From Lytechinus pictus (lineage: Eukaryota), in NCBI RefSeq assembly GCF_037042905.1, contig NC_087245.1:17176001-17240000 (forward strand): a stretch of 64,000 nucleotides of DNA. The letters are read 5' to 3'. The translations under genes and the position numbers were made by a program. How positions within the stretch are numbered: position 1 is the first letter of the stretch; each line of letters starts with the position of its first letter. The notes below the pieces were generated by a model. It made no database searches. It had not been told where the DNA came from and saw only the letters and a list, made by a program, of their open reading frames with translations. Below, piece after piece: positions 18,101 to 48,696 of this stretch.

Positions 18101-18286
18101 GACACATGGGGTATGAAATGAATCTTAATTACTTCCGGAGTTTCAATTGTGAGAAAATCAGGATATTTAAGATTTAAATTTAGATATTTTCATATTAATT
18201 CGTTGGGAGAGAATGCTCCACCCCCCCCTTGCCAAAAGGTTGCTCATCCGCTCCATTTGTCTCTCTGACAATTGCCAATCCATTAA

Positions 18287-18870
18287 AGGAGAATGAAACC
18301 CTTGAAACCAGCTGAATCCATATCAAAGAGAAAAATCAAAGAAACATATTGTTGAAAGTTTGAGGAAGATTGAATGAATAATAAGAAAGTTATGAGCATT
18401 TGAATATTGAGATCACTAATGCCATGTAGATCCTCCCATTGGCAATGCGACCAAGATCTGTGATGTCACACACGTACAACTCCCTCATTACTTTAGTACT
18501 TATTTCACTTATATTCTCACTTTTAAAGAGTCTATCACAAGGTGAGGTGTTCTCTTTATGAGAGGACAAGTACAGATGTTTCACAACATTATATCATTGA
18601 TGAATCGTTTGTCATATGATTAGAATGAGCAAAAAGAGATGTTTTGGGGTATATTTTCAGTGTCCAAAAGGGGAGAGTTGTTCATCTGTGACATCATAGA
18701 TCTTGGTCGCATTGCCAATAGGAGGATCTCCATAGCATTAGTGATCTCGACATTCAAATGCTCATAACTCTTCTATTGCTAGTCCTATTTTACTCAAACT
18801 TTTGTTGATCTTATTCTTTGATTTTTCTGCTTTCACAAAAGCTAACTTTCTCCAAGAGTTTCATTCTCCT
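18287..18870. mobile_element. Kolobok-type (TTAA) non-autonomous DNA transposon/MITE
   Basis: TTAA on both flanks, AGGAGAATGAAAC...GTTTCATTCTCCT termini, imperfect inverted arms of about 190 bp. Confidence 0.8.
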
Positions 18871-20839
18871 TTAACCTTTTTTTACCAAAATATCATGGGA
18901 CCAATCTCGTCATCCCTCCCCCTCTCTCTCTCTCTTTCTCTCTCTGGGGGCATAAAGTATGAATACTCCCTGTCCCAGTTAGCAGGATAATAAACCCTAA
19001 TATATATTTTAAGTATTTAAATGGGCTATATTATTATGGAATATTTCGACTGGTTTATGATCAAAATAAAACCTTATTTAAAAGTCAATGGAATCGTAAA
19101 ATTCATAAATGGACTACTCTCGTGATGTAGCGGATTTCATATAAATTTCCTTTCATATATCTTCCATTTTACAAATGTTTTTGACCATGAATTCATACAA
19201 AGCCAGTTTGTCATAAGTATAGTTATGTTTGTAGGAGAGATCACTTTGTCCCTAAGAGAGAAAGCCTGTAAAAGGATACGCCTGTAGACATGTCTACAGT
19301 ACAGGCAATTTTTATTAAGCATGAGCGACCGAGCGTGAAATTTTCGGTTCTAAAATGCAAAATTAGGCCATTTGATGATTAGAAAAATAAGATTTCTATC
19401 TTGAAAAGTGTGTGTGATAATTTTACAGGCCACCCCCCCCGGATTTATGCTTGTTATTCATGACTTTATAAGGGCAATTATAAGGAGAAAACTCGTAAAA
19501 TACATAACCCTGAAATAGTTGCCTTTTTTTCATTTTAGAAGCATTATTTTTTAATGAATGTAAATATATATATACATACATACACCCGTACATACTAACC
19601 GCGTAGCCAGGATTTCATTTTGGAGGGGGCGGTAAATGCACGCGAAGCGCGCTCCCTAGGGGGTGGGTGCAGGTAGTTACCCCCTCCCGCGCGAAGCGCG
19701 AAGCTTTTGGTGTTTCATAAATTAAAATGAAAAGGAACCGTCTCTCTTGTCTCTAGTACCTATATCAGCTCCAATTCACTTGACTATATTGTGATTTTGA
19801 ACCTTGTTTTCATGAACCTTGTTTTCAAAAGTGATTGTGAACGCACAAAAAAGGAATACAATGGAGGAAATTAATATAATAATAACCCCGCGCAAAGTGC
19901 GGAAGCTGAAGCGTTTTATTTTTTTTTGCCATGAAAAGGGTCCCGAGAAAAGGGTATTCTCGAATACTTCCCTTGGAAAGATCAGATTTGATTACAAACA
20001 ATGTAGCGACAGTGCATATCTTTAACTCGCAAAACAGAGGAGAAGAAATGTATATGCCGGGAGGAAGATATTCCTCCCCGCGCAGAGCAATGAAACTCTG
20101 GAATTTCAAAGAGCGGACGTTTCATCAAATGCAGATATCCCATCGGCTCTAATTCGATTGATTTTCTAAGATTATTGAACTTCATTACAAGGAAAATAGT
20201 GCGCAACAAGTTGAAACTTCTGTGATTTATTGAAATTATATAAAAAGGATGCCTAATTTCTTTGACTTATCCTGAAGCGCTTCATTTTGAATTATAAAGA
20301 AACTTATGTGTCATTCAAAATTTCAAGCTGAGGGTGCAAAACAGGACAGGAGATGAATGTGCAGGGAAATGACATGAAGTTTAATAGAATTTTATTTAAA
20401 AATATTGTACTTTTTTATTTAATACGACACGAATTTTATACCTTCCTCTTTTAAAATTAGGAACATGTTTGCCCCAAAATTATGGTTGCTTAGTAATGAG
20501 CTGAAAAGCGGGAGAAGTTGACTTTATGGAGGTGACGGCAGAAATTGATATAAAGATTTTACCCGCCTGGAGCCGACCCGACCAGAAGTTGCGCGATCAA
20601 TTAAAAAAAAGATATTAACTTTATATACTTCGGCCTAACCTTACTCTAATTCCATGCGCTAATGTATACATTTGAACTTTAACTGGCAAGAGACACATAT
20701 AGCTGAGGTGGAAAAACAGGGTTGGGAAACAATGGAGAACTTCAGTATTGTCATGTAACCACGCGCAGCGCGGAAGCAAAATTCATATTTAGTGGAGCGG
20801 TTATGTGACAAAAAATGGCCAAGATGCTCGGATCTGGCA

Positions 20840-23150
20840 GAAAGTGTGAAATTTGGCATACAGGGGTATTTTTGGGCGCTGATTAAAAAAATTGCCGGCC
20901 CCAAGCAATTTGACCATCGGGTCGGCCGCCATTTTGAAATCCAAGATGGCCGCCATGAAATATCATTAAATGTCAATTTCTTGAGTTTTACATGGCATGT
21001 GACACTGAAATTTGGCATATAGGGGTATTTTGAGGCACTGATTTCAAATATTGCCGGCCCCCAGCAATTTGACCATTTGGTCGGCGGCTAAATGGCCGCC
21101 ATTTTGAAATCCAAGATGGCCGCCATGAACAATCATTAAATGTCATTTTCTTGAGTTTTACATGATATGTGACACTGAAATTTGGCATACAGGGGTATTT
21201 TTGGGCGCTGATTAAAAAAATTGCCGGCCCCAAGCAATTTGACCATCGGGTCGGCCGCCATTTTGAAATCCAAGATGGCCGCCATGAAATATCATTAAAT
21301 GTCAATTTCTTGAGTTTTACATGACGTGTGACATTGAAATTTGGTATGTTGTGGTATATTTAGGCACTGATTTCAAATATTGCCGTCCCCCCCAGCAATT
21401 TGACCACTTGGTCAGCGGCTAAATGGCCGCCATTTTGAAATCCAAGATGGCCGCCATGAACAATCATTAAATGTCATTTTCTTGAGTTTTACATGATATG
21501 TGACACTGAAATTTGGCATATAGGCTTAATTTGGGGTTCTGATTTCAAATATTGCCAACCCCAAGTGATTTGACCATCGGGTCGGCCGCCATTTTGAAAT
21601 CCAAGATGGCCGCCATGAGAAATCATTAATGTCACTTTCTTGAGTTTTACATGATTTGTGACACTGAAATTTGGTATGTTGGCGTATTTTTAGGCACTGA
21701 TTTCAAATATTGCCGGCCCCCAGCAATTTGACCACTTGGTCAGCGGCTAAATTGCAGCAATTTTGAAATTCAAGATGGCCGCCATGAAAAATCATTAAAT
21801 GTCATTTTCTTAAGTTTTACATGATATGTGACACTAAAAATTTGGCATATAGGCTTAATTCGGGGTGCTGATTTCAAATATTGCCGGCCTCAAGCGATTT
21901 GACCATCGGGTCAGCCGCCATTTGAAATCAAGATGGCCGCCATGAAAAATCTTTGAACTCATTTTCTTGAATTTTACATATGTGCCACTGAAATTTGTAG
22001 TATATCGGTATCTGGGTGAGTTAATTTAAAAAATTGCTGGCTCCAAGCAATCTGACAATTGGTCGGCGGAAAAATGGCCATCAACTTGAATTCGAAGCTG
22101 GCTGCCATAGAAATATTGCAATTATTTTGTTGAGTTTTATATGATCTGCGGTATTGCACTTTGACATATAGAAGTAGTGTGGGGAGCTTATTTCAAATAT
22201 TGCTGGCCCGCAGCGATCTGATCCCCTGAGTCAGGGTTATACGGGCCAAAGATTTTCATTCGAGCCAACCCATTTAATTCTCAATTTTTAATTTTGATAT
22301 TGCTGATTTACAAAAATGAATGAATACATGTATGATTGATATTCTAACACTGATTCTAGGGAGGGTAACTTTACTGAACTTCCCTTTTTTCAAATTGGGA
22401 AGATATATCACCACTTTGGAACTATTTTTATACTGGCGGGAGAAGTATTGCCATTTTACTGTCTCAAGTGATGAATTTGATCCTGTCAGGTGTAGTCTTC
22501 ATAAATGCCGATTTATTTTTAAAATGAGCTGGTCGAGGTACCCTTTTCTGGTCAGATATGGAATGTCCAACATATATCCTATCCACTGGTAGTAAACACT
22601 AAACCCTCGAATTTCATCCTTTTTTTTAGAGCGCCTCTTTAACACACGAGTATATGGGAAATGTTTTAGGCCCGTGATCCCTTAGCTGCAAAATGGCAGC
22701 CATCTTGAAATCCAAGATGGCTGCCATAAAAAAATCATTATAAAAATCAAGTATCATAATTATAACGTAGGTATTATTTTGAAATTTGGCATCTTGGGGT
22801 ATTGAAATTTCCCCCAGTAATCTGTCCAATAGATATGCTGCAAAATGGCCATTATCTTTAAATCTAGAGAGGATCGACTGTCATGAAAATTCATTAAAAT
22901 CATTTTCTTGAGTTCTAAATAATTTGAGGCACTGCATTTTAGACATACAGGCAGGTTTTGGCTTGCTGGTTTTAGAATATTGCTGCCCCAGTGATTGATC
23001 CACCGGGTCAGCTGAAAATGACCGTCACTTTGAAATCTAAGATGGCTACTACGAAATATCTTTTAAAAATGTTTTCCTGAATTCTACATTACCTGTGACA
23101 CTGTAAATTGGTATTAAGAAGCAAAAACTTGTATTGTATGTTAATTTCAA
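20840..23150 (+). repeat. Left-arm tandem array (alternating ~170/~159-bp units, decaying inward)
   Basis: CAAGATGGCCGCCATG recurs at about 20941, 21111, 21270, 21442, 21601, 21770, 21928. Confidence 0.9.
22234..22681. mobile_element. Harbinger/PIF-like MITE inserted in the left arm only
   Basis: Imperfect TIRs GGGTTATACGGGCCAAA / TTTAGGCCCGTGATCCC, TCA/TTA flanks; the empty site is visible in the right arm near 28335. Confidence 0.55.
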
Positions 23151-23564
23151 ATATGGATAGATAATGAACATATAACACATAACACACTTTATCTGCCATT
23201 TCAAATTCCATATGACCCATCATGACACAAAGGACATGATTACCTAGCTTAGTTCTAAATATTGATTATTGTGGGGGAAAATAAGGACAATATGATAGCA
23301 CTAATCAAAATTCATGTATGGTATAACTGATGGTAATCCATTTATTATTGATATCAATCATTTATATGCTAGACGGTTGACAGTGAATCTTACAGATCTC
23401 CAGGAATTACTTAGGAACGATTCAATTGATAGTCATGTGTTCGACAATCTGACAATGGGAGCATGTTCGCCACACAATCGGGACATCAAGCCCCGACAGC
23501 ATCAGACCAAAAGATGTTAAAAGAGGGGAGTTGCTTCTACCCTGTTTGGCGGTCAACGAATTAA

Positions 23565-24028
23565 AGGGGAAGTTCACCCTGACAAAAAGTTTATTGAAAC
23601 AATAACAGAATAAATAATGAAAACAAAAATTGAAGGTTTGAGGAAATTCCATCAAATATTTAAAAGCTATTGGAATTTCATTTGGTGTATTTGTGACGTC
23701 AGATGCAAGCAGTTCCCCATGTTTCTTATAGTACAAAAATCAATGAAATGTAGCCTCCTAAAAAAAATGAAATTTTTGTTATTGAACCCTCAGTATATCA
23801 ACAAACAAATGATTTCACACCCGCTCCAGAAAGAAAAAAATTACCCATGATGAACCATTTATGCATTTTATATCACACAACATAATGGGGCAGCTGCTCG
23901 TACAGTATATGACGTCACAAATTAAAAACTTAAAATTCTAATATCTTTGATGGATTTACCAATATCTTTTTTATATCATATTTTCTTGTGTTTTTACAAC
24001 AAACTTTTCTCCGGGGTGAACTTCCCTT
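23565..24028. mobile_element. Kolobok-type MITE nested in the foldback element
   Basis: TTAA-AGGGGAAGTTCACCC ... GGGTGAACTTCCCTT termini; internal TGTGACGTCA/TGACGTCACA symmetry. Confidence 0.7.
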
Positions 24029-25264
24029 TTCAAGGGATAGAGCAACTTCCGATGTGGCGCTGCTAAGTTGCTGCCGGGCTCACGAACTACAGGGTATGGG
24101 CAAAATAAATTTTCAGAGCATTTCTGTTACTGAATTCTATTTTGAACAATAAAATATGTATTATTATCATCCATCATTAATATTAATTTCATCATCATCA
24201 TCATTATCATCATACCACTATATAACCATTAACTCTTACTCTGCCAGGCCCAATACCCCTCTACTGCCAGGGATATTCGAGGGAACCCTAACTTGACCGA
24301 AATGTGAGCAGCGACTGATTTTAAAACGGTCATAATTCTTTACCCGTACATTGTATAATAAAACCTTCTACACATGAAATGATGCATGGTTCATGGGCTT
24401 TATGGTCGTGTTATTATCTTTCATATTCGCGTTTGGAAAAATGGAGAAAAGATGTAATATTTTACATCGTTTTTTTTTTCAATAAGTAAAACCTAGAAAA
24501 TTATGATTTCATGAACATTTCAAAGAGTAAATAACCTGAGGAATTGTAGAGATACCAAAAAAATAAGAAGATAAAATGAAAGTTCAATGTTTATCCTTTC
24601 AAATGACGTATCTATTAATGAAATTGAACAAAAAGAAATAACGAAAAATAATGCTCTTTTGAATAAAATACTATTTTGCTATTCAAGTTATTCCCTCTAC
24701 AGTACGATAAAGCGACCTGTTCCAAAAAAGGGCATTGTCGCCGATCAAGTGACCAATCACAGCACAGCTGCGATCCCCACGCAAACACACACAATAATAT
24801 ATTAGAGCCATGTATCTTCAAAGTGCTGCCAACCGTACCCTTTCATTCGTGTAGTCTTCAAAATAAGACTCTGTAATTTTTTTATTCGTAGTGTAACAAA
24901 CAAAGTTATGGCCAGTCAGAAGGAGACAAAATATAAAAGAACTAAAGATGATATATTGAAATATAGATAAAGAGGGGTCGGACAGTTTCAATACTTACAA
25001 GTTTGGGGTATAAAATCCCACAAAATAATATGGGCGTTCTTGGCAAAGTGCACATAAGTAAGAAAAAAAGGTTTATTTTTCGTGAATCAAAGAAGAGGGA
25101 ATGAAAATCAGTTACAAACAAAAAAATCAATACAAATTTTCAAAAAGAAAATAGGCCTATTTGTTCTGTATTACTGGTCTGACCAAAGTAGCCACCTGTT
25201 AACATTCTACGTGACTACATTCTTTTGGTCATGCCACCAAGTCATGAACAATAGATGCCCAGAC

Positions 25265-25941
25265 TCTCTTTCATGAGGAATCTCTAATCCGCGCTCCCTT
25301 CTGACCTATTTTATTGCCTCTCTCTCTTTCTTTTCATTCTACCCCAGTTCTCTAAACTCTTTGTTCCCCATCCTCCTTCCCCTCCTCTTCTTTCTCTTCC
25401 TCTTCTTCTTTTCGTTCTTCTTCTCTCTCCCTCCCCACTTTTATCTCTTTCTCTCTCTCTGAGTATTGTATACATGCATATGACAATTATTTTGATACTA
25501 TATTTTACTGTTGTGTTACTTTGTAGCATGATCATTGTTGTCACGTTCGACTATATTGCTTATTCTCTGCTTATGTAACATTGAAGTTCTCACAATATAT
25601 GCAACTCCATCTCCATAGGCTTGACTATCTGATAATAACATAAAGTTGTTTATTTAAATACGTTAACACTTCATATTGACTGGATATTATAATTGCACAT
25701 GGAAACAAACACTCTTTATTATTAAGTTCTTTGTTTTATTAAGTAATGCATCTAAACATATATTGCCATTTTATCTGATTTTATTTTGTATATTTGTAAA
25801 CCCCGACTAGTGAGGAGAGCTTCATAACAGAAACTAGTTTTTCTTTTAGTCATCCTCAGGCACTAGTCGGTGGTAATTTATTCCTCTTGTATATATTCTT
25901 ATTGTCTTTTGCCTGGAAATAAAATAAATAAAAAAAATAAA
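25265..25941 (+). mobile_element. 5'-truncated LINE 3' end (L2/CR1-group-like)
   Basis: Degenerate ORF2-end-like peptide (SFMRNL*SAL), pyrimidine-rich UTR, GAGGA...TCCTC stem, AATAAA/A-rich tail. Confidence 0.4.
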
Positions 25942-27036
25942 TATTATCTAGGAGAGTAATTTAGCACAGGATGTTCATAGAAATCGGGGCTCACGCGCGT
26001 CTTTTGATTTGACATTTGAATACTTTCAAAGGTTCCGGTATTGATTTCTTATGGGTGACCCAGGTAAAGAGAAAACAATTTGCCCCCCCTACAGAAAAAT
26101 CCTGCATCCGCCCAGGGCCTCCCCAGCTCGTAGCACTATCCGTGGTAAAAGAAATAATTTGCTCAGATAACATAGTGTACAATAATATGCGTGGTATAAA
26201 GACATGTAATATTCAACCCGTTATAATCGTTATCATTTTCATTTCTACTCTCTAAAGTCGTTTTAAAATCCCCTTCGATAGTGACGTCAATGATGCAGCA
26301 ACTAAACAGGTCGGTCTGATCGGTTTTGTTAATGTATCCATTTCTTTCTTTTCCTCAAAACATCTTGAGACGAATAAAGCGGTATTATCGGCCGTTTTAA
26401 TTATCACATGTATTTGTTTTGCTTCTTCCTATTTTATTCGAGGAGAATATTGAACGATTCATATTTTTGTGAGAAGTTTGAATATGATATTGATAAGCAT
26501 AACAATGTCAATCATTCTTTTTTTATGGTTTGGGCTATAAAAACACAAACGAATATGAACCGTTATTTACCTGATCTTAAGTTTATGAAGAGAGAGTTTG
26601 GCTGCAGAAGGAATGCAATTGATATGATTACAACAATTATTTTTGAATAATAATCATAATGATGATGATGATTCTGATGGTAATAACATTAATAATAAGA
26701 AGGTGAAGGAGAATAACAATGATAATAATAGCAATAACAATAATGATAACAATGATTACGATAATAGTAATACTAATAATGATAATAATAAAAATAATAA
26801 ATGAATAAATAAATAATGAGTGTGATAATTGCAGTGCGATGAGAGTTGGAAATGACAGCCTTCTTTACTCATATATTTATAACGAGAACAATTTTGTGAG
26901 AATGCTAAAAAAACAAAGTATAAGACCTCCCCCCCCCCCCCACCCCCCAAAAATCTCCCCCAAACCTTGCACATTTGCAGGCAGTAAAAAGCCTTGACAC
27001 AAGAATACTACCATACCGACACAAGAATACTACCAT

Positions 27037-27961
27037 ACTCGCCTTTGCTCTGCCCATAGAATTACGTGTATTGCTACACACAACCTTTATATCACACGTG
27101 TCTATAGGGGAAATCTTGATTCAGATCGCGGCAATATCCGAAATCAACTCTTCAAAATAATGATGCAAAAATGCCATTTTACTCAAAAAATGTCTATGTA
27201 AACCACTATTTTTTATATAACAAAATCACTTGTAAATTCCTTGCCAATATAACAACATAAAAAACACAGAATATAGTGTTGATTTTCTGGCTGTAAAATT
27301 GGTTAAACAAAAAAAAGTTACTTGGGCAACTATAGCTGCCAGTGGCACTAGAGGGCTATGGGCAACTATAGCTGCCAATGGCTCTGCCAACGTCTTTCGG
27401 ATGGTGACGTTAAAGGTCGGTCCCAGACGTAAATAATCATATCTGATTGATACACGTCTGACAAAACTCAAATACACACACACACACACATGCAAAAGAA
27501 CCGATCGATAGCTCATGAATATTCATAAACAATAGCGAATGGGCGAGTAGCGTTGGGTGAGAGACATCGTACCGCTCTGTCATTGGTCAATTCTGAGCTG
27601 AATGCCTTCGCACACTCGCCTTTGCTCTGCCCATAGAATTACGTGTATTGCTACACACAACCTTTATATCACACGTGTCTATAGGGGAAATCTTGATTCA
27701 GATCGCGGCAATATCCGAAATCAACTCTTCAAAATAATGATGCAAAAATGCCATTTTACTCAAAAAATGTCTATGTAAACCACTATTTTTTATATAACAA
27801 ATCACTTGTAAATTCCTTGCCAATATAACAACATAAAAAACACAGAATATAGTGTTGATTTTCTGGCTGTAAAATTGGTTAAACAAAAAAAAGTTACTTG
27901 GGCAACTATAGCTGCCAGTGGCACTAGAGGGCTATGGGCAACTATAGCTGCCAATGGCTCT
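27037..27961 (+). repeat. Near-identical ~349-bp direct repeat (27037-27385 and 27614-27961)
   Basis: Both copies run ACTCGCCTTTGCTCTGCCC...GCCAATGGCTCT; I see only a 1-nt A-run indel between them. Confidence 0.92.
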
Positions 27962-28029
27962 TAAAGAGTTAAACCATCAGTACTTCAAGTCTGGAGCAGT
28001 TTTCTTCATGTCGATTTGTAATAAAATGT

Positions 28030-29990
28030 CACAATTATTGGAGCAATATTCTGAAACCAGCAGGCCAAAAACCTGCCTGTATGTCTAAAATGCAGTGCCT
28101 CAAATTATTTAAAACCAAGAAAATGATTTTAATGAATTTTCATGACAGTCGATCCTCTCTAGATTTCAAGATGGTGGCCATTTTGCAGCATATCTATTGG
28201 ACAGATTTCAATATCCCTAGATGCCAAATTTTAAAATAATACATTACGTGATACTAGATAAAGTGATTTTTTTTTCGATGATCTTTTTTAATGGCAGCTA
28301 TCTTGGATTTCATGATGGCTGACATTTTGCTTCTGACTCAGGGGATCAGATCGCTGAGGGCCAGCAATATTTGATATAAGCACCCCACACTCCGTCGATA
28401 TGTCAAAGTGCAATACTGCAGATCATATAAAACTCAAAGAAATAATTTACAGCCTCTCAACGGAAAATGATTGTTCCGGATGGTTATTATTCAACCAAAG
28501 CCACTTCAAATGTGTAACTGCAGAAGAAGCTAGCTGGTTTGTGTATTCATGGTGTTTCATACTTACGTTACATCTATATCAGCAGTTAAGGGTGCCAAAG
28601 TATTATAATCCTTGCAACGGACAAAGATGTGGTTGTGTTGGATTTGTTTTCAGTGCCAATACAATGGGTTTTACTCACCATTATAATGTTGTACATCATT
28701 CAAACTTGGTAACCATATTGGAATTCAAAATAGCATCTATTTATTATGTTTTTTTCATTGATCAACGATGCAAATATCAAGTTTTTCTCCAAATTCAAAG
28801 TGTTAAAGGCCATACGTGAGACTTGAGCAAATTATCTTTCATGGCAGCCATCTTGTATTTCAAAATGGCAAACAGGGGTCTGACAATAATCAGTGCCTAA
28901 ATATATGCCTATATGACAACTTTCAGGGCCAGATTTCATATAAAACTCAAGACAATTATTATTGCTTTTAATTCATGGCGGTTATTTTGCCAAAACCCGG
29001 TGGTTACAGGCTGGTGGCCGGCAAAAATCAGTGCCACGTACTTCTGTATGCCAAAGTTTGGTGTCATATATAATGTAAAATCCAAGAAAATTATTTTGAT
29101 ATGGTTTTTCATTGCAGCCATCTTGCCGCTGAACTGATGGTCAGATCACTTGTAGTTGGCAATATTTGAAATCAGCACCCCAAAATAGGTACTCTATTTG
29201 CCAAAGTTCAGAGCACATGTAAAATTAAAGAAAATGATCTTAAGTGATTTTCATGGCGGCCATCTTAGATTTCAAGATGGCGGCTATTTGAAATAAGTGC
29301 CCTAAACTACACCTACACTGTATATGCTAAATTTCAATACCATAGCTCATTCAAAACTAGAGAAAATTCATGGCGGCCATCTTGGATTTCAAAATGGCGG
29401 CCATTTAGCAGCCGGCCAAATGGTCAAATTGCTGGGGGCCGGCAATATTTGAAATCAGTGCCTAAAAATACCCCAACATACCAAATTTCAGTGTCACACG
29501 TCATGTAAAACTCAAGAAAGTGACATTAATGATTTCTCATGGCGCCCATCTAAGATTTCAAAATGGCGGCCGACCCGATGGTCAAATCACTTGGGGCCGG
29601 CAATATTTGAAATCAGCACCCCAAATTATGCCTATATGCCAAATTTCAATACTGCAGTTCATATAAAACTCGAGAAAATGATTGCAATAATATATCATGG
29701 CCGCCATCTTGGATTTCAAGATGGCGGCCATTTTGCCGCCAACCAAATGATCAAATTGCTGGGGGCTGGCAATATTTGAAATCAGTGCCTCAAAATACCC
29801 CTATATGCCAAATTTCAGTGTCACATGTCATGTAAAACTCAAGAAATTGACATTTAATGATTTTTCATGGCGGCCATCTTGGATTTCAAAATAGCGGCCG
29901 ACCCGATGGTCAAATCGCTTGGGGCCGGCAATTTTTGAAATCAGCGCCCGAAAATACCCCTGTATGCCAAATTTCATACTTTCTGCCAGA
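28030..29990 (-). repeat. Right-arm tandem array, reverse complement of the left arm
   Basis: CATGGCGGCCATCTTGGATTTCAAAATGGCGGCC-type units at about 29870, 29700, 29540, 29370, 29255; 28040-28210 is the reverse complement of 22820-22985. Confidence 0.9.
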
Positions 29991-30360
29991 TTCGAGCATC
30001 TTTTTCACATATCTACTGGACTAATATAAATTTAGAGCAAGAGTGAAGGAGTTTCTCTTTTGAGAAAAAAAAATGAAGAATAAAAATTAAAAAAACAACA
30101 CAAAGCTACCGCTATCTTTCTTCCCTTTCCTCCCTTCCTTTTTCCTTTTCTCCTCTCTCTTTTTCCCTTCTTTTTTTTTTTTTTTGGGGGGACGTTTTTT
30201 TTGGGGGCGACCGCCCCCACCGTTCCCCCCTGGTACATACATACATACAAAGTTGATATTGTTATGCTCGGAGTCAGAAAACAAAACATATTCTGGGCTA
30301 ATATATCAATATATTTATCAATGAAAAAAAATTGAATGAAAAGTCTGACACACCTCGCTC

Positions 30361-30388: not shown

Positions 30389-30393
30389 AAAAA
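30389..30393 (-). terminator. Pol III oligo-T terminator of the 7SL gene
   Basis: T5 run immediately after the 7SL 3' end on the minus strand. Confidence 0.75.
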
Positions 30394-30691
30394 CAGGATT
30401 GGGTCTCACTGTGTTGAACGGGCTGCAAGCCGCCGACTATTCACAGGCGCTATCCCACTACTGCTCCACACGGGGACTTTTGCCTGCTGCGTTTCCGCCC
30501 TGGGCCAGTACGTCCCTCCTTAGACGACCTGGTTGCCCGATCCTCCGACCAAGTAACCATATCGATGCCGAGCTTAGCGCGGACGCCCGATCGCCATAGA
30601 ACGACGACATACAGGACTCCCGCTCTCAAACGATCCACCAACCCCGACCTCCAAGTAGCTGGATTACAGGCGCACGCCACAACGCCCGGTC
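30394..30691 (-). ncRNA. RN7SL: Signal recognition particle RNA (7SL), full length
   Basis: Minus strand starts GACCGGGCGTTGTGGCGTGCGCCTGTAATCCAGCTACT (Alu domain). It contains the helix-8 motif CCCAGGGCGGAAACGCAGCAGG and CAGTAGTGGGATAGCGCCTGTGAATAG, ends ...CAACACAGTGAGACCC followed by TTTTT, and is about 298 nt and colinear with vertebrate 7SL. Confidence 0.95.
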
Positions 30692-31270: not shown

Positions 31271-33737
31271 CAGTGGCGTACCTGGCATATTTCGTCAGGG
31301 GGGGGGCAAGCGACAACTTGAATGAGCAAGGTGGAGGGGGGGTAGTAGGCATGGACGTATAGGCACAATTTTTCAAGGGGGGCTGATAATCATTGCCAAA
31401 ATATCAACTTCACAGTTTTTAATTTTCGAGCGAGCGAAGCGAGCGAACATTTTTTAAATTATAATTTAGCCTTTTTACATGATATGAACATGCAAAAATT
31501 ATATATTCGGTCATAAAATTACCAATACACGAGGATGTTTGGGCACCTCGCAGTCCCTGTTGTCCTGCATTTTGCAGCCCACCCCCATACACGTTTGGAT
31601 GTGTTGGTCTGGAAGTGGCACTGAAGGTGGGAAAGGTTATCCAGGGGTGCCCAATAAAACAGTTGGAATCTTGCTACTACTGATATTTGCTATCGGGCGA
31701 TTGCACTTTATTGTCGAAATTAATTCTTTTTTTGTATATCATTCCAGAAATGAACTGTATTGGATCGTGATCGATATATTTCTAATCAAGTGGTAATTGC
31801 AATATTTATATTAAAATACTTCTTTTATTCCTCTTTGAAGGTGTTTACATTATGTTCCCAATTCTGCTCATTTGGAGACGTTATAAAAGAGGTATTTGAC
31901 ATTGAAATCAGTTGTGTTCATGTATTAATTTGCATTTGTTTTATTTCCATACATTCACTCATAAAAAAATAAATATGAACGTGAAAATATATGCGACAGT
32001 AACATGATATATCACTAGCTATATGGAGAAAATCACTCACACACTGACAACAATGTCAGAAGGTTGAGGGAATTGAAATTGGAAAATATAGATAGGCGGA
32101 CGAAGGGATCGGGTACATAGGATAGAAAGGGAGGACGGTAATAACCAGAGGAATGTGTAAGCAGGGGTATAGCTAGGCCTTTACCGAGATATCAGTACCG
32201 ATTACTGACGTCCGACGACCAATACTCATCTATATCCAACCCAGGGGCAGATCCAGGGTTTTCAAGTGGAACATTTTGTTTACAAAAAAATGACAAGCCC
32301 CACCCCCAAAAAGTCTTCACTTTTACTTGCACGTGCCTAACAACTTACACTAAAATTATATAAAAATGATAATTGCGAGCGCGAAGCGCGAGCTGTAATT
32401 TTCTAAAAAATTTGGACCTAAAACGATACATTTGTGCACTTAACTATGAATAGGATGGGTATCTTCCTTAATAAATTATGCGAGCGCGAAGCGCGAGCTA
32501 AAAATGTTGATATTCCTAACTGGACACTAGACATTCTAAGCAGTTTTACAAAATGGGTATCTATAACAGTCGTGCGGGCGCAAAGCGCGAGCTAAAACTT
32601 TTGATATTCCGACTTAAGAACTGGATATTCTAAGCACTTTTAGTAACCATGAACAAATCGGTTTCTAACTGAATAATTAATTGATGCGAGCGCAAAGAGC
32701 GAGCTGAAATTTGAGATATTCCCCCCTGAAAAGTGAACATTCTAAGCACCTTTTTTTCAAACTATGAACAAGATGGTAGTTAAAAACAATTAATTGGTGT
32801 GAGCGCGAGCGCGAGCTGAAAACTTGAAAACTTTACATTCTATCTAATTATGAACAGAATGGAACTTTATGCGAGTGCGAAGCTCGAGCTGAAATGTTTG
32901 ATATTCCGACCTAAGAACTTGATATTTTACATGTTCTAAGCAATTTTTGTAACCGTGATCAAATTGGTTTCTAATTACATATTTTTTATATTTTTGATTT
33001 GTTATATTCCGACCTGAAAACCGGACATTCTAACCACTTCATTTATCTATGAACAGGATGGATATACCTAAATAGTTATACGATAGTTAACACGAAGCGC
33101 GAGCTGAAATTTTTTATTATTCCGGCCTAAGAACTGGATATTATAAGCACTTTTTGTAACCGTGAACAAATTGGTTTCTAACTAATCAATTGACGCGAGC
33201 GCGAAGTGCGAGCTGAAATTTTTTGATATTTCAACCTGAAAACTAGACATTGATCATAGGTATCCGACTAAAAAATTGATGCGAGCGCTACGCGCGAAAT
33301 TTTTATTGTTATAATTATTTTACCTAAAAGTTGTTCTCTAACTTTTTCCTGTCCCTGGTCAGCCCAGTCCGTCCTCACTATCGAAACAGAGAGCTCTAAA
33401 AGTTGCATTGCGTAAAGATCACAATTTACCGATAAAAGTGTACAGTTTAATTGACATTTACCGACAAAGATGGTGGAACTAAAAAACCAAATCAGTTGGA
33501 ACAGCCCCGAGTGCCCGACAGTTAATCATTTTTTCCGACAGTCTGCAGTCCAGTTTTTGTTTTCCCTTTTTTCGTAAACTCTTTCTTCTTTTTCCCCTTC
33601 CCCTTTTTCTCTCTTTCCTTTTTCCTCTTTTCTTTTTTCTTTCCCTTTTTTCGCTTCCTTTTTTTTGTTGCTTGTGACTCGTCAGGGGGGGGGGGGGGGG
33701 CAGTATGCCCCCACCCCCCCCCGTAGGTACGCTAGTG
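31271..33737. mobile_element. hAT-type non-autonomous element, copy 1
   Basis: 8-bp TSD TATAACAA on both sides; TIRs CAGTGGCGTACCT / AGGTACGCTAGTG; internal ~100-bp tandem units with GCGCGAAGCGCGAGCTG. Confidence 0.85.
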
Positions 33738-38098: not shown

Positions 38099-41000
38099 CA
38101 GTGGCGTACCTGACATATTTCGTCAGGGGGGGGGGGGGCAAGCGACAAGGATGAGCAAGGTGGGGGGGGGGGGGGTGTAGGCATTGACGTATATAGGCAC
38201 AATTTTTTCAGGGGGGCTGATAATCATTGCCCAAATATCAACTTCACATTTTTTAATTTTCGAGCGAGCGAAGCGAACGAACATATTTTCAATTATTATT
38301 TAGCCTTTTTACATGATGTGAAACGTGCAGAAATTATACATTTGGTCATAAAATTACCAATACACGAGGATATTTGGGCACTTCGCAGTCCTCGTTGCCC
38401 TGCATTTTGCAGCGCACCCCCCCCCTTTACACGTTTGTATGTGTAGGTCTGGCAGTGGCACTGAAGATGGGAAAGGTTACCCAGGGGGTGCCCAATAAAA
38501 CAGTTGGGATCTTGCTACTACTGATATTTGCTATCGGGCGATTGCACTTTTATTGTCGAAATTAATTATTTTTTTGTATATCATTCCAGAAATAAAATGT
38601 ATTGGATCGTGATCGATATATTTCTAATCAAGTGGTAATTGCAATGTTTATATTAAAATACTTCTTTTATTTGAAGGTGTTTACCTTATGTTCCCAATTC
38701 TGCTCATTTGGAGACGTTATAAAAGAGGTATTTGACATTGAAATCAGTTAATGATTGCGAGCGCGAAGCGCGAGCTGAATTTTTCCAAAAAATGTAGACC
38801 TAAAACAATACATTTTGTGCACTTAATCATGAATAGGATGGGTATCTTCCTTATTAAATTATGCGAGCGCGAAGAGCGAGCTACAAAATTTTGATATTCC
38901 TAACTGGACACTAGACGTTCTAAGCAGTTATACAGGATGGGTTTCCAAACAGTCGTGCGGGCGCAAAGCGCGAGCTAAAACTTTTGATATTCTGACTTAA
39001 GAACTGGACATTCTAAGCACTTTTAGTAACCATGAACAAATTGGTTTCTAACTGAATAATTAATTGATGCGAACGCAAAGAATGAGCTGAAAATTTGAGA
39101 TATTCCCCCCCCCCTGAAAAGTGGACATTCTAAGCACTTTTTTTTAAACTATGAACAAAATGTTAGTTAAAAACAATTAATTGGTGTGAGCGCGAAGCGC
39201 GAGCTATTTTTTTTAATATTTCGACCTAAAAAGTTTACATTCTGAGCACTTCATTTAATTATGAACAGGTTGGAATTTTATGCGAGTGCGAAGCTCGAGC
39301 TGAAATTTTTGATATTCCGACCTAAGAACTAATTTTTGTAACCGTGAACAAATTGGTTTCTAATGATGTATTTTTTATTTTTCATATTCCTACCTGAAAA
39401 CCGGACATTCTAAGCACTTCATTTAACTATGAACAGGATGGATATATCTAAAAATCAACTGCGTAGCCAGGATTTAATTTTGGAGGGGGCGGTAAGTGCA
39501 CGCGAAGCGTGCCAACTAGGGGGAGTGTCCAGGGAGGGGGGAGTTTCCCACCTCCCTCGCTGAGCGCGAAGTTTTTGATATCTCATCAAATTCAAATCAA
39601 AAGAAGGCGTCTCTAGTACCCTTATCAACTTGCTTGACTTGCTGTGATAAAAAAAAATGTTTTCGAAAGAAATTATGTGCGCCCCCAAAATGGGAAAAGA
39701 TTGGAGAATTTGAAATAGTTCTTCTTACCGCGCGAAAGCTTAGAACGTTTTATAAAAATAGAGAACAGAAATTATACAATCATGCCTACCTTGGTCACAT
39801 CAGATTTGAGTGAAAAAAATTTATCCACATTAAATTTTGTTAACTCAAGTTGCAAAACAGAGTAGAAGACGGGTATATACAGGAAGTAAACAGGCCCTAT
39901 TCCTTTCCGCGAATGGTGTTGAAGCTCTGATTTTTTTTTTTTATCTGAAACTTTAATCTGTTCTAATTTTGATATTTCTTAGATTATATATAACTCGATT
40001 AAGAAGAAAATGAGCTCAGATGTGAAAGAGATGATGCAAGCTAGAAGAGGGACTTTTCCTTTCCCATGCTCGCGAAGCACGGAAACCTTTGTGATTTATT
40101 TTGGAAGGAAACAAATTTTCGCTCATATTATAATATGCGCCTCCTTTTGTTTAAGAAAGTTCAGTGATATTCAAAATTTCAAATCAATGGCACCAAACAA
40201 AACAGGAGATGGATGTGCAGCGATACAGAACAAAGTTTAATATCGTACATACTTTTGCATATAGCACGGCACGAATTTAATTCCTCTCCCTTTGAACAGA
40301 TACTTTGCCGAAAATTACTTGCTGAAAAGCGGAAGAATTAGCATTTGGAGACCCAGGGAGTGACGGTAATATTTAACCGCTCCGAACAGAAGAGCCAAAA
40401 TTTTGTGTCAATGCAATATTAAAAAAAAATCATACTCTTTACACCCATGTATACTTTATAATTTCTGGCAAGAATATACGATTTGCACGGCCGGGAAGGG
40501 GAAAAACGGAGTAGAAAGAAGGTGTGGGAATCAAAAGAGAATGGCAATTTTGATGTTTTTTTCCCGCGCGGAGCGCGGAAGCAAAAATTTTAGCATGAAT
40601 AGAGAAGAAAATCTCGTTTAGGTTGTTATTCTTTTGACCAAAAACGAAGGAAAAAACAGCAGAAGTTATACCTTTCTTCCCTTTTCTCCTTTCCCCCTTC
40701 TTTTTTTTTCTTTTTGGGAGCGTTTTTTTGGGGCGACCGCCCCCACCGCCCCCCTGGCCACGCGCCTGCTAAACAGTATATGGGAGCACGAAGCGCGAGC
40801 TGAAATTTTGATATTCCGGCCTAAGAACTGGATATTATAAGCACTTTTTGTAACCGTGAACAAATTGGTTTCTAACTAATCAATTGACGCGAGCGTGAAG
40901 TGCGAGCTGAAAATTTTTGATAATTCAACCTGAAAACTAGACATTGATCATAGGTATCCGACTAAAAAATTGATGCAAGCGCTACGTGCGAAATTTTTAT

Positions 41001-41404
41001 TGTTATAATTATTTTACCTAAAAGTTGTTCTCTAACTTTTTCCTGTCCCTGGTCAGCCCAGTCCGTCCTCACTATCGGAACAGAGAGCTCTAAAAGTCGC
41101 ATTGCGTAAAAATCACAATTTACCGATAAAAGTGTACAGTTTAATTGACATTAATTGACATTTACCGACAAAGATGGTGGAACTAAAAAACCGAATCACT
41201 TGGAACAGCCCTGTGTGCCTGACATTTTTTCCGACAGTCTGCAGTCCAGTTTTTGTTCTCCCCTTTCTCTTAAACTCGTTCTTCTTTTTCCCCTTCCACC
41301 TTTTTTTTCTCTTTCCTCTTTCCTTTTTTCTTTCCCTTTTTCGCTTCCTTTTTTTCCTTGTGACTCGTCAGGGGGGCAGTCTGCCCCCCTTAGGTACGCT
41401 AGTG
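38099..41404. mobile_element. hAT-type non-autonomous element, copy 2 (carries nested element 39456-40768)
   Basis: 8-bp TSD ATTGTGCC on both sides; same TIRs and body as 31271-33737. Confidence 0.87.
39456..40768. mobile_element. hAT-type non-autonomous element nested in copy 2
   Basis: Imperfect TIRs CAACTGCGTAGCCAGG / CCTGGCCACGCGCCTG; degenerate TSD CTAAAAAT/CTAAACAG; absent from copy 1 at about 33070. Confidence 0.75.
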
Positions 41405-43928: not shown

Positions 43929-46900
43929 GACCACTTGGTCTAGTAGCCAATTGGTTTAGACCACCGATCAATGTAAACCGGGTTTAGAAATATAAAACAG
44001 AGAGCCATCGATACATCTTTATGGTGCGGTTCATCCCGGATGACGTTTCAAAGTCAAAGTTTTTTTCGAATAATTAAAGACACGGAAGAACTGATGTCTG
44101 AAATATTATCTCCGCCAAAATTGCTCTTTTGTTCGGACGCGATGGTAGTGCGAAGGTGAATCGCTTGAAGGAAATTCAACATTAACAACGTCTCCGAATC
44201 CATCTTCGAATTTTAACGTACAGTGATGAAATGCAATTGTGAAAATTTGCCATTTTTCGACATTCGCAACTTTCTCAATTAAAATACAACATGCTCGAGT
44301 GCTCCACAATGTCCGCTTGAATAAAAATACATCCTCAAGACGCTGTCTCGTAATGGACCAGTACTTTATTCAACAACAATGTTTGTTAGCCCATCTTACT
44401 ACGGCCTCATACAATTTATGCTGTTGACGCCCATGTTGTCAACATCTACATATTTCTTAAAGGCCAGTAAATGTAAGCATTCATTTCTCAAATGTGTGTA
44501 AGGTAGTACATGTAATATGTGACGGCCCTTTTAATTGGGACCATTTCATAAAGATGATCATGAAGTGATTATTCATGAGTGTTTCTTGGTGTTTCAGCAC
44601 ACAACCACATTATATTCCCTTTCTCAGTTTAAGAGCACTTTAAATACCCATCTTTTTAATTCCTAATATCATGTATGCTATTTTGTTATTTATACTCTTT
44701 AGTTGTTGTTGTAGCTCTTGTAGATGGTATAAGTTTAGTTTACTGTAGTTTTATTGTAAAGCGCATAGAGAATTGAATATTAATTATTATGCGCTTAATA
44801 AATCTAACATTATTGTTATTATATTATATCAGATTGCAATGCATGAAAACAATATGAATACAGTTTTAATTACCAAATTCCATATCTAGGTTTTTGGAAC
44901 CAACTTCATTCCCATCAACCCCTGACATTCCTGAACCGAGTACGGATTGTGAAGTTCACACTCACGTCGTGTATATCAAAACGCATAAGACGGGCTCTAC
45001 CACACTGGAAACGCTATTCAACCGATTTGGCTATTTCCACAATTTGTCATTCATCTTCAATGGAAAACAGAAGTATGGACACTTCGAGTAAGTTTTGATG
45101 TCAGCTTCGTTTTAAACATGTTTTGTACTGAGGGATTGGCATTGAAACAAAATTGTCAATAAACAAAAATTACATTGAAAATTTAAATTTGATTCATGGT
45201 TGTCGCTATTAATAGCATGGGAAAGGGAAGGGTGATTATCCTCTGCGATTTCTAAGTGGTGGAAAAAGAACAAAATTAAAAAATGATAAAGGCAGAAGGC
45301 AAAAAAAATGTTTATCTCTCTCTATAAAAAAGGAAAGGTACGGAAGGGGGATATTGATCGGCACAACAAATATCTAAAATTTTGGTCATCTTGTATCATT
45401 CTTATCAAAGTATCCTTGCGTCGCAGTTTTACCGCAGAGATTTAGGAGGGGGAGATTTTCGATTAAATAATTGTCACATTTTCCACAAATAGAAAAATTG
45501 GGTTTGCCTTTGATATGATTAAACGATGAAATCATCTATTTTCCACACTCTTTTTCTTTGTTAAAACAGTTTACTACATTTGTTAAGTTCTTTCTCCTAC
45601 TAAAATTCCACATTCGTGCTTTCTTAGCAGTCAGGTAAAAAACCCAGTATAACATACATAATATAACATACTTTTTAATAAGTGGAACAATCAAGCAGAA
45701 GGTCATTCCCCTCCGAATAATGCCGCCTCTAGCTGCCAACTTATTAGCAATATGTCATCGGTTGCACTAGCGTACATAAGGGGCGCAGACTGCCCCCCTG
45801 ACGAGTCACAAGCAAAAAAAAAAGGAAAGAAAAAAGAAAAGAGAGAAAACGAAAGAGAGGAAAAGGAAAGAGAGGAAAAAAAGGGGGAGGGGAAAAAGAA
45901 GAAAGAGTTTAAGAGAAAGGAAAACAATCACTGATCCAGGGGACATGCCCCCCCCCCCTTATAAGAAGCAAAATTAGATATTTGTAATGTAAAAATGCCA
46001 TGAAAACAGACGTGAAGACTGAAGACCTTTTTTTTTCTTTTTTTTCTTTTTTTTTTGCTTGTCAAATTTTTTCGCGGACGAAATATCCTCCGCCGCTGAT
46101 CGGTTGCTTCCATTAAATGGCCGGGATATCGTATGTAGATGCTCTTTCGGTTATTCGGTTATCCCCCTCCCATAGACGCTCTGTCGTTCCTCAATGTTCT
46201 ATAATAGACATGTTTTCCCCTTTTCTCGAATTAAAGTGTCTCCGTTTAAACCCTACTGACCCTGTTTTAGTCTTCTCTATTATTCATAACATTAAGTTAA
46301 TCGAAATTATTTATATTCATTAAACATAATTCTTGATATATAGTCACATAATTTTCTTTATGTAAACGAAAATGACAATAATTGAAAATACTTCAAAATG
46401 GAGCGGCATGGGAGTATTTGCATCGTTGATACTGCAGACAAGAACTGAAGACCAGGATTTTCTGACTTGATACAAACATAATTAATGATTGCTAGCCAGG
46501 TATTGGTTGTTTTGTGTGTTTGGAGCTAGCCATATTTTCACCTAGTATTGTCCTCCAGGGGCCCGTAACACCAAGCTTAGCAATGATCGTAGAACATCTT
46601 TCTACGATTGATTCTATTGACTACAGTGTACGATCAATCGTGAAAATCAAGCGCACAATTGATCTCTAACCTTTGTGTTACAGGACCCAGATATCGACAA
46701 CTTCATGCTTCGTTACTGTGAACCCCATGCCATTTTATAATACTTTAATATCATTTTGCTTTGTTTTAAATCTCAAGGGCAATGGATTTGCGGAAAGCTG
46801 ACATGCTGGAGCAACTACTCCCACCACTAGGAGTTGAGACAGGAGATTATGCGAGATATAAGAACTACGAAACAAGTGCGATTCACGTGCGATTTTATCG

Positions 46901-47750
46901 CGACGTCTTCGACAGATTCATGGCCAAAGATACGCGTTATGTTTCTAGCGTGCGTGATCCTGCCGACCAATGGGAGTCTGCATTTAATCATTTCGGATTC
47001 AGAAAAGCCATATCCCAGTTAGCCGATGCTAATGGACAGATGGTCAATATAACGAAGACGCACAAAGTACCTTTTAATGAAAATAATTCTACACTTGATG
47101 CAATCCACGAATTCCTTAGAAAGCCCAAATTGTACTTGGAGGTGCTAAAAAAGAAGGGGAAGGTCATTTATCATTTTGCGAACAACGATCAGACCTACGA
47201 TTTGAGCACGGATCTAGAATCAACGCAGCTTCATGATGAGAAGCTTGTCAATCGGACAATCGACCGACTAGTTGACGAGCTGGATGTTGTCATTGTAAAC
47301 GAATACTTCGATGAATCTCTACTAGTCATGAAGAAGGAATTCTGTTGGGAATTTACAGACATTTTATACATTTCACAGAATAAACGAGCAGTAAAAGAAA
47401 TGTTGCCGGAGAAAACGCGTGCAAAAATTAGAGACTTTAACAGAGCAGATACTCTACTTCATCAGCGCTTCAATGATTCCCTGTGGAAGAAGATCGAAGC
47501 CTACGGACCAGATTTTCAGAAAGACCTAAATCATTATAGACAAATGTTGATTGATGTCAATTCAGAATGTTCTGCCGAAGGCAAGTCCAAGAAACATGGC
47601 TTTAATTACCAAATATACAATGTAAAGGCAAAGAAGAATGCAACCCTATTTTGTAGATTTATGGCGGATAACTTTTTAATGACATTTAGGAGAGTCTTTG
47701 AAAGACAGCGTAATCAGACGATCATCAAAACGCGAAAGATCAAACAATAG
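42131..47750 (+). CDS. GAL3ST: Galactose-3-O-sulfotransferase family (GAL3ST/cerebroside sulfotransferase-like) type II Golgi enzyme, 478 aa, 3 coding exons
   Basis: Exons 42131-42396, 44890-45087, 46778-47750 splice in frame (both introns phase 2; 1437 nt). N-terminal TM GILLIVTLSVTVIVL, 5'-PAPS loop KTHKTGSTT, 3'-phosphate motif RDPADQWESAF, EYFDESLLVMK. Family-level call only. Confidence 0.9.
43295..43892 (-). mobile_element. LINE 3' UTR remnant with (AATC)n tail
   Basis: Minus strand GGACCCCACTGGAAATAAGCTTTCGAGCTTTCGTGGGTCATCC stem-loop, AATAAA, then (ATCA)n. Confidence 0.5.
44890..45087 (+). CDS. GAL3ST: Sulfotransferase exon 2: PAPS-binding loop
   Basis: VVYIKTHKTGSTTLETLFNRFG; TAG acceptor, GTAAGT donor. 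Confidence 0.9.
46559..46687. mobile_element. Small Harbinger-like MITE (related copy at about 12430-12550)
   Basis: GGGCCCGTAACAC...GTGTTACAGGACC termini, CAG flanks; body shared with 12430-12550. Confidence 0.6.
46778..47750 (+). CDS. GAL3ST: Sulfotransferase exon 3: remainder of catalytic domain
   Basis: 322-aa ORF with HVRF, RDP..QWESAF, NDQTYDL, EYFDESL, NRADTLLHQRFN. Confidence 0.92.
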
Positions 47751-47955
47751 GCGGGGAACATGATAAATATAAGCCTATACTTCGTACGCAGTACGGTCCC
47801 CACTGCAGACTGCCAACCTGTGTCCTCGATTGTGTTAGGTTTCCATTGCAGAACTTGTCAACTTGTAACCACATTAATTTGACCAATATATTTTTATTCG
47901 ATCAGGTCGGCAAGAATAAAGTTACCCCGGAAAGTTACCTGGTCAAGCTATTTAA

Positions 47956-48553
47956 AGGTCAAGTCGACCTCGTAAAAATGTTTATTCGAATCAATAGAGA
48001 AAAATCAGACAAGCATTATGCTGAAAGTTTCATCAAAATCGGACGTAAAATAAGAAAGTTATGACATTTTAAAGTTTCGCTTATTTTTCACAAAATAGTT
48101 ATATGCACAATTTAGTCACATGCAAACGAGAGAATCGATGATGCCCCTCACTCACTATTTCTTTTGTTTTTCATTGTTCGATTTATACATTATTTCAATT
48201 TTTGCAGATTTGACAATAAGTACCAACTTGACTGAACCATAAATGTTAAGAAATGGTAATTCAACATGTTCAGAGAGAAATAAAACTTTGTTTCACAAGA
48301 ACAATGAGGAGAAATTAGAATATTTCATATTTCATATAATAAAATACAAAAGAAATAGTGAGTGATGTCATCAGTTCCCTCATTTGCATACCGACCGGGA
48401 TGTGTATGTAACTGTTTTGTGAAATTAAGCAAAACTTTAAAATATCATAACTTTCATACTTAACCTCCGATTTTGATGAAATTTTCAGTGTTATGCTTGT
48501 TGGATTTTTCACTTTTTATTCAAATCAAAATTTTGTTGGGGTGGACTTGTCCT
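47956..48553. mobile_element. Kolobok-type MITE
   Basis: TTAA flanks; AGGTCAAGTCGACC / GGTGGACTTGTCCT termini; inverted arms of about 230 bp. Confidence 0.8.
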
Positions 48554-48696
48554 TTAATAGGTAACCACAGCGATGTCAGATAAGGTAGTCTGACGCCTAT
48601 ATAGCACCCCATTTTCTTACCGAAATAGACTCATCAGGTATAGGTTAACCTTGATTGGATTCGATCGGGTAGATTAATTGGGCACTGGGTCTGTCC

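Follow-up and report, generated by a model that had tools for sequence, protein, structure and literature searches.

Two kinds of described transposon bear on the locus considered here, a 9234-bp element at positions 20790–30023 of a 64,000-nucleotide stretch of the Lytechinus pictus genome (contig NC_087245.1 of assembly GCF_037042905.1, forward-strand positions 17,176,001–17,240,000; this whole stretch is called the window). Foldback elements—Drosophila FB, Galileo and Tetris, and sea-urchin TU—possess long inverted arms of tandem repeats around a non-coding middle, belong to other superfamilies and have longer target duplications. The Academ superfamily and its AcademX lineage reportedly go back to Kapitonov and Jurka in 2010 and to Kojima in 2020. 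AcademX elements generate 3- or 4-bp target duplications and encode a nuclease, and AcademH elements combine a 9–10-bp duplication with a helicase (PMC10045372); a 3-bp Academ duplication is also given in PMC5199201. Under the Repbase rule, a non-autonomous element is placed when its terminal 11 bases align with those of an autonomous member with no more than one mismatch (PMC4455052). These and the other published sources are cited for the parts of them that were covered.

The window element is one old, gene-less Academ copy and thus a foldback-shaped addition to a known superfamily. We put the probability at about 0.9 that it is a non-autonomous Academ element of the AcademX lineage that measured ~4.6 kb on arrival, carries an amplified subterminal unit and was later doubled in length by three nested insertions. 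It shares with Academ/AcademX the TAG...CTA ends, a 3-bp duplication, the tip sequences of curated families and a subterminal palindrome, but differs in being non-coding, in having ~21 subterminal units with a dimer period and in owing half its length to nested insertions. Its likeness to foldback elements lies in arm shape, whereas the outer repeats are unrelated; foldback describes a shape, not a family. An earlier reading of the DNA from its letters alone (the sequence-only reading) had already recognised a mobile element with inverted arrays of YY1-type sites, and had made its novelty depend on the lack of a match to a described family; such a match exists, at superfamily level.

Boundaries and insertion site

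The element begins with TAG at 20790 and ends with CTA at 30023, one base inside the ends that had been proposed. To its left lies part of a very high-copy host repeat (19597–20789, the left limit being approximate), recognised from contig depth and from a second copy: in runs X1 and X3, summed contig depth—which is not a copy number—reaches ~1e4–2.7e5 in this flank versus 4e2–5e3 inside the element. The contigs are those of four of 15 sequencing runs (three studies), compared with window positions 20101–21000, and the matches listed comprise 24 of 629 loose ends. In runs with a low share of words in common (organism A, 0.05–0.17), it is probably the host repeat that accounts for most of the sharing.

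Among the matches listed, 13 contigs of run X3 pass from 20788 directly to sequence that matches the window from 30026 onward, with 29 of 30 letters in agreement (20 of 30 at the best other place in the window). A second, diverged copy of the host repeat, at 39457–~40830, is also unbroken across the insertion point. Because the host repeat runs unbroken across the junction in the empty form, the whole 9.2 kb is one insertion. The target duplication measures 3 bp, with ATT on the left (20787–20789) and ATA on the right (30024–30026, plus strand in both cases), after which the host repeat resumes; the empty site reads ATA. Target duplication and empty form together bear out the claim of mobility. 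If the window is considered by itself, the TAT flanks of the ends first proposed, TTAGT/ACTAA, agree in all three letters; compared with the empty site, those ends imply a 1-bp duplication, whereas TAG/CTA imply one of 3 bp, and the empty-site form rules out the proposed ends.

Contigs may also point to copies elsewhere. Among the listed matches, the left end is followed in one X12 contig by 224 letters of foreign flank, and an X13 contig starts right at the TAG of a right-type end; possible dispersed copies are represented by that foreign-flank contig and by many variant contigs in four runs from three studies.

Tips and curated Academ families

The left tip (20790–20846, plus strand), the long end, begins with TAGTGGAGCGG, and the right tip (29977–30023, minus strand), the short end, reads inward TAGTCCAGTAG. 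Both were compared by text search with a curated bivalve library (PMC10294476 Additional file 31), in which 100 of 762 families are Academ and of which the first ~400 letters of each consensus were covered. Within that part, TAGTGGAGCGG, the 11 bases with which the element opens, occurs four times, each time at the start of an Academ family, and the same holds for all 12 occurrences of TAGTCCAGT, the first nine bases of the right tip, which are also those of the metagenome tip described below. The left tip agrees at 11 of 11 bases with four curated Academ families; the right tip agrees at 10 of 11 with Academ_A.marissinica_19, and at only 9 of 11 with the metagenome family. With 11 of 11 bases on the left, 10 of 11 on the right and a 3-bp duplication, the element is therefore placed in Academ by the Repbase rule.

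The curated Academ families shown begin with TAG, a few with TAC. The motif word CAAGATGGCCGCC has 27 places in the covered part, 26 of which were viewed: 23 stand under an Academ header, two are TAG starts with the header out of view, and one belongs to a TcMar family. In the curated Academ families 21, 52 and 19, the motif recurs at ~164, ~152 and ~165 bp, respectively (counted by hand). Academ_A.marissinica_21 and Academ_A.kagoshimensis_5 have the first 11 bases of the left tip and contain the motif; they differ from the window element in being autonomous and 5.7–6.3 kb long, in the rest of the unit sequence, which is unrelated, and in showing no long arrays in the part covered.

Arrays and the YY1-like palindrome

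Tandem Repeats Finder (TRF) places the left array at 20847–21997, with periods of 159 and 329 bp and 91% matches at 329, and the right array at 29420–29976, with a period of 158 bp. A unit profile recovers 11 left-arm units, one of them in two pieces, and ten right-arm units, ~21 in total, of 150–173 bp with long and short in alternation. The inverted tandem arrays claimed for the element were thus found by both methods, and the alternation of ~170- and 159-bp units in a ~329-bp dimer is supported by the TRF periods and by class identities. Mean identity is 88.6%–88.8% within a unit class and 83.3% between classes; hence the A/B dimer is real but modest. Well-kept units number only seven on the left (20847–21988, plus strand, alternating at ~159/~171 bp, with lengths of 159, 170, 159, 172, 158, 173, and 151 bp) and four on the right (29338–29976, minus strand). 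Inward of these lie four divergent left-arm units, one of them split by a nested miniature inverted-repeat transposable element (MITE) (21989–23101, plus strand), and four divergent right-arm units (28800–29337, minus strand). Since tandem joints between units recur in contigs of all four runs compared, the arrays are not an assembly artefact. Single-strand folding of one array unit is unremarkable (z −2.1).

The arms had been described as reverse complements, which holds for the outer ~650 bp (84%–95%, with terminal inverted repeats of 317 bp at 94% adjoining the tips) and for an inner segment (28042–28447, minus strand, 87%–98% complementary to 22120–22234 plus 22682–22984), but the pairing is patchy, with middle blocks mostly at 70%–88%. 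About 350 bp of the right arm (28448–28800) have no left-arm counterpart and form part of a 153-aa frame. The outer units are more alike than the inner ones, as had been noted, and this gradient had been put down to inward decay; inner units, however, are up to 98% alike between arms and only ~70% alike to outer units. Because the inner units match between arms and differ from the outer ones, the gradient reflects family history rather than decay at this locus. Near 28800–28830, the right arm has a variant inner unit that by eye also forms a loose end in four contigs of run X12, among the matches listed.

The array units carry the palindrome GCCATTTTG-N5-CAAGATGGC, which is altered in the last two of the seven left units. 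In the form first quoted, it has 15 copies in the window with up to two mismatches, all 15 within the element. Its equation with the YY1 consensus stands, in that the YY1 site of human L1, in the part of PMC8887483 covered, contains CAAGATGGCCG. The 'dozens' of YY1-type sites that had been counted are there for the loose core GCCATNTT, with 36 of 47 window matches in the element (four of the 36 in nested insertions; 12 expected), but not for the strict word CGCCATNTT, with ten of 14 window matches in the element (1.85 expected per window); both counts are of consensus words. Outside the nested insertions, 32 loose-core sites form two facing blocks. In the covered part of PMC10294476 Additional file 32, the word CAAGATGGCG lies near the start of some consensus sequences of bivalve CR1 long interspersed nuclear elements (LINEs), where L1 has its YY1 site.

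Metagenome relatives and their protein

A palindrome scan of metagenome contigs yielded at least 121 stretches, and 120 loci were analysed; an unrelated retroelement open reading frame (ORF) in locus L005 was left out of the counts. Among the matches listed, of the 115 motif copies followed by 200 or more bases of sequence, 59 reach a common terminus 150–172 bp further on, the last nine bases of which are those of the element's right end and which adjoins 51 different flanks. Again among the listed matches, motif copies lie 149–168 bp apart in 19 of 25 intervals shorter than 500 bp, and perfect 3-bp duplications (TAC, TTG, CTA, AGT) border four of the six two-ended elements for which both flanks are present; a seventh two-ended element is cut by its contig, and the compound locus L068 is excluded from the duplication count. 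The array unit profile reaches a score of 25 in none of the 120 loci, so the window element and the metagenome loci share only tips and motif.

An Academ-like protein is matched at E <1e-10 by 35 of the 79 listed loci of at least 1 kb, a partly redundant set given here without a background rate. Corals, one sea anemone, and one bivalve supply most of its named relatives, and of 56 aligned family members, 24 carry DUF6589 and 19 a CXC/TCR domain. The structure model of its C-terminal 684 residues (predicted local distance difference test, pLDDT, 80.7) matches Exo1, T5 FEN, XRN, FEN1, and Rad2, with a best E of 7e-5, and the protein is thus predicted to carry a FEN/XPG fold. Given this nuclease fold and the 3-bp duplications, the metagenome relatives fit AcademX; AcademH is ruled out by the 3-bp duplication of the window element and by the fold predicted for the relatives. 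Sequence searches of PDB with the protein and its profile gave nothing useful, and Pfam comparison of 15 single ORFs from the metagenome loci returned only a weak DUF6589 match and the unrelated retroelement frame of L005. Two scans of viral contigs for the palindrome gave 0 and 0 matches. Prokaryote genomes gave 15 single matches in 596 Gb, which are taken as chance.

The transposase and XPG-type nuclease that mark an autonomous Academ are present in the metagenome relatives and absent from the window element. Searching the element with 128 Academ-like proteins (one marginal match, E 0.044) and with their profile revealed no transposase remnant, and its longest frame, of 153 aa, has no Pfam match.

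Some metagenome ends are arranged in ways of their own. Among the matches listed, Academ ends are stacked in tandem ~355 bp apart in L024 (776–1294), L058 (322–837), and L068 (490–1085), an arrangement that insertion of one end into or beside another would produce. Short tandem arrays of 153–168 bp occur at other motif-bearing ends, in L054 (877–1482), L013, L081, L084, and L096; that of L054 adjoins the end of an Academ-like ORF.

Unlike ends and a possible route of transposition

The two tips of the window element differ in length by exactly 10 bp, the left being the longer (offset 57 versus 47). A similar difference is found in the metagenome family: among the matches listed, 59 of 61 distinct termini have their inner block at a distance of either 33 or 43 bases from the tip, and each of the seven two-ended elements has one end of each kind; the extra ten bases of the long ends differ in sequence. 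A length asymmetry of one helical turn between the ends is thus well supported. Random pairing would give seven of seven short-long pairs in ~0.7% of cases; the elements are of one family, however, and descent alone could therefore explain the pairing. That short-long pairing is a requirement is something we infer. Neither end has a consistent side with respect to the transposase gene, the long or the short end being upstream in different metagenome loci. Unlike ends with spacers about one helical turn apart are also the basis of the 12/23 rule of RAG signal sequences and Transib ends; the likeness considered here is one of end layout.

The element would have moved by cut-and-paste in trans, through an AcademX transposase encoded elsewhere in the genome. 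Such a transposase may recognise the tips together with the subterminal palindromes—the CXC domain at its C-terminus being a candidate reader—and would pair a long with a short end and join them to the target with a 3-base stagger. Ordinary Academ ends carry one to three palindromes at a spacing of ~150–170 bp; here, unequal exchange or slippage near the tips could have multiplied the subterminal unit, producing an A/B dimer array and with it the foldback shape, and the three nested insertions would have followed the arrival of the element.

A wider generalisation, which we regard as doubtful, is an Academ end code held in common across animals, with a TAG tip, short and one-turn-longer spacers, YY1 palindromes at nucleosome-like spacing, obligatory short-long pairing as in the 12/23 rule, and host YY1 acting as a co-factor that bridges or bends the ends. 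If it were true, expanded arrays like those of the window element would scatter clustered YY1 sites through invertebrate genomes. The Academ literature searched holds no description of the YY1-like palindrome, the arrays, the period or the 10-bp asymmetry, though the main Academ papers and Repbase/Dfam beyond that search may have them; the covered parts of PMC5753468, PMC10799480, and PMC5751038 contain nothing on Academ termini.

Weighing the readings

Several observations count against the placement in Academ. The duplication has one mismatch, in its left copy, and two of the six two-ended relatives among the matches listed lack a duplication. The metagenome loci are not independent, some being the same place in different assemblies and one family being dominant, and most matches in the covered part of the bivalve library come from one species. 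Many curated Academ starts shown there have a half-site only or none, and likeness to other Academ families is confined to the tips and a 30–50-bp motif block. In L. pictus itself, the family is represented here by a single full copy. An inverted satellite duplication, or two elements that face each other by chance, would account for the unequal arms (seven versus four good units), for middles that align at ~70%–88% and for tips that differ; the host repeat, however, joins exactly across 9.2 kb with a 3-bp duplication, both tips are of Academ type and unequal tips are the rule in the relatives, so that this explanation is largely refuted and highly improbable.

The motifs themselves can be understood in three ways. 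Sites of transposase binding are usually palindromic, repeated subterminal motifs, and since the motif and its ~150–170-bp spacing are Academ-wide, transposase sites are the simpler reading; by default, then, the palindrome is a predicted transposase site, and its YY1 likeness appears, from sequence comparison, to be a family trait not made for this locus. Compatible with Academ membership, but unlikely in our view, is that host YY1, instead of the transposase or alongside it, binds the palindrome in the service of the transposon, bending or bridging its ends or setting a chromatin or promoter state. The match of the half-site to the YY1 site of human L1 (PMC8887483) would suit this, as would the retention of the motif in Academ ends of otherwise unrelated sequence, the 149–168-bp metagenome spacing, and the occurrence of similar words in one TcMar family and, close to the 5′ end, in some bivalve CR1 LINEs; against it stand the typical transposase-site layout, the mere ten strict consensus sites in the element and a metagenome spacing drawn from few families. 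The sequence-only reading had gone further, proposing a looping, insulator or Polycomb-recruiting module between an MLCK gene and a 7SL gene. It could point to 32 loose-core sites in two facing blocks, and in the part of PMC12221973 covered, YY1 motifs are enriched at Nematostella domain boundaries and Mutator terminal inverted repeats mark placozoan loop anchors. The element, however, is 3′ of both genes (MLCK-like coding exons end at 15147 on the plus strand, and 7SL occupies 30393–30690 on the minus strand), sits inside another repeat and has itself taken three insertions, one of them in an arm; family ancestry already accounts for the motif array, motif and spacing being standard in Academ ends of unrelated animals. 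Being downstream of both genes and within another repeat, the element has no supported regulatory role for either, and co-option of this copy is very unlikely. The fallback offered with that proposal, that the motifs are transposase sites, is the better reading of them.

The locus itself is ordinary selfish DNA and illustrates that a cluster of YY1 motifs in the genome of an invertebrate may be nothing more than the end of an Academ element, which matters for reports of YY1 motif enrichment at boundaries or peaks. Academ is little studied; tip, palindrome with its period, and 10-bp asymmetry supply a signature for gene-less copies, and this opens direct biochemical tests of which protein reads the palindrome and of the need for unlike ends.

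Nested insertions and other features of the window

Three later insertions make up ~4.65 kb, about half of the 9.2 kb, and leave ~4.6 kb that is mostly arms. The first, at 22234–22681, is a 448-bp MITE with GGG...CCC ends and TCA/TTA flanks, which is missing at the matching right-arm position and which we take to be Harbinger-like. The second, at 23565–24029, is a MITE of ~465 bp, presumably Kolobok-like, whose inverted ends are short and whose flanks read TTAA/TCAA. The third, at 24233–27968, is an insert of ~3.7 kb that is bounded by TTAA copies and has the ends CTCTT...AAGAG, assumed to be piggyBac-like; its left end is confirmed by a differently flanked copy (86%) from 63451 onward, and its right end is inferred. 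Two direct repeats of 352 bp (27034–27385 and 27611–27961), 99.4% identical and 225 bp apart, end at the right end of this insert and are preceded by a 22-bp tandem duplication.

The 7SL (signal recognition particle, SRP) RNA gene at 30393–30690 is full-length and lies 370 bp from the right end of the element; sequence matches to the MLCK-like exon are distant and mostly from fish. At 46770–47750 there is a 326-aa frame of a galactose-3-O-sulfotransferase gene, and at 52946–54679 two frames encode a reverse transcriptase and, after it, a GIY-YIG domain; we take this retroelement to be Penelope-like. Two hairpin-shaped, MITE-like repeats of ~600 bp (18283–18874 and 47952–48557) have a short stretch in common. 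Long dispersed repeats (85%–91% identity) at 31271–33690 and 38099–41376 contain internal sub-repeats of ~100–200 bp, the latter being interrupted by the diverged host-repeat copy.

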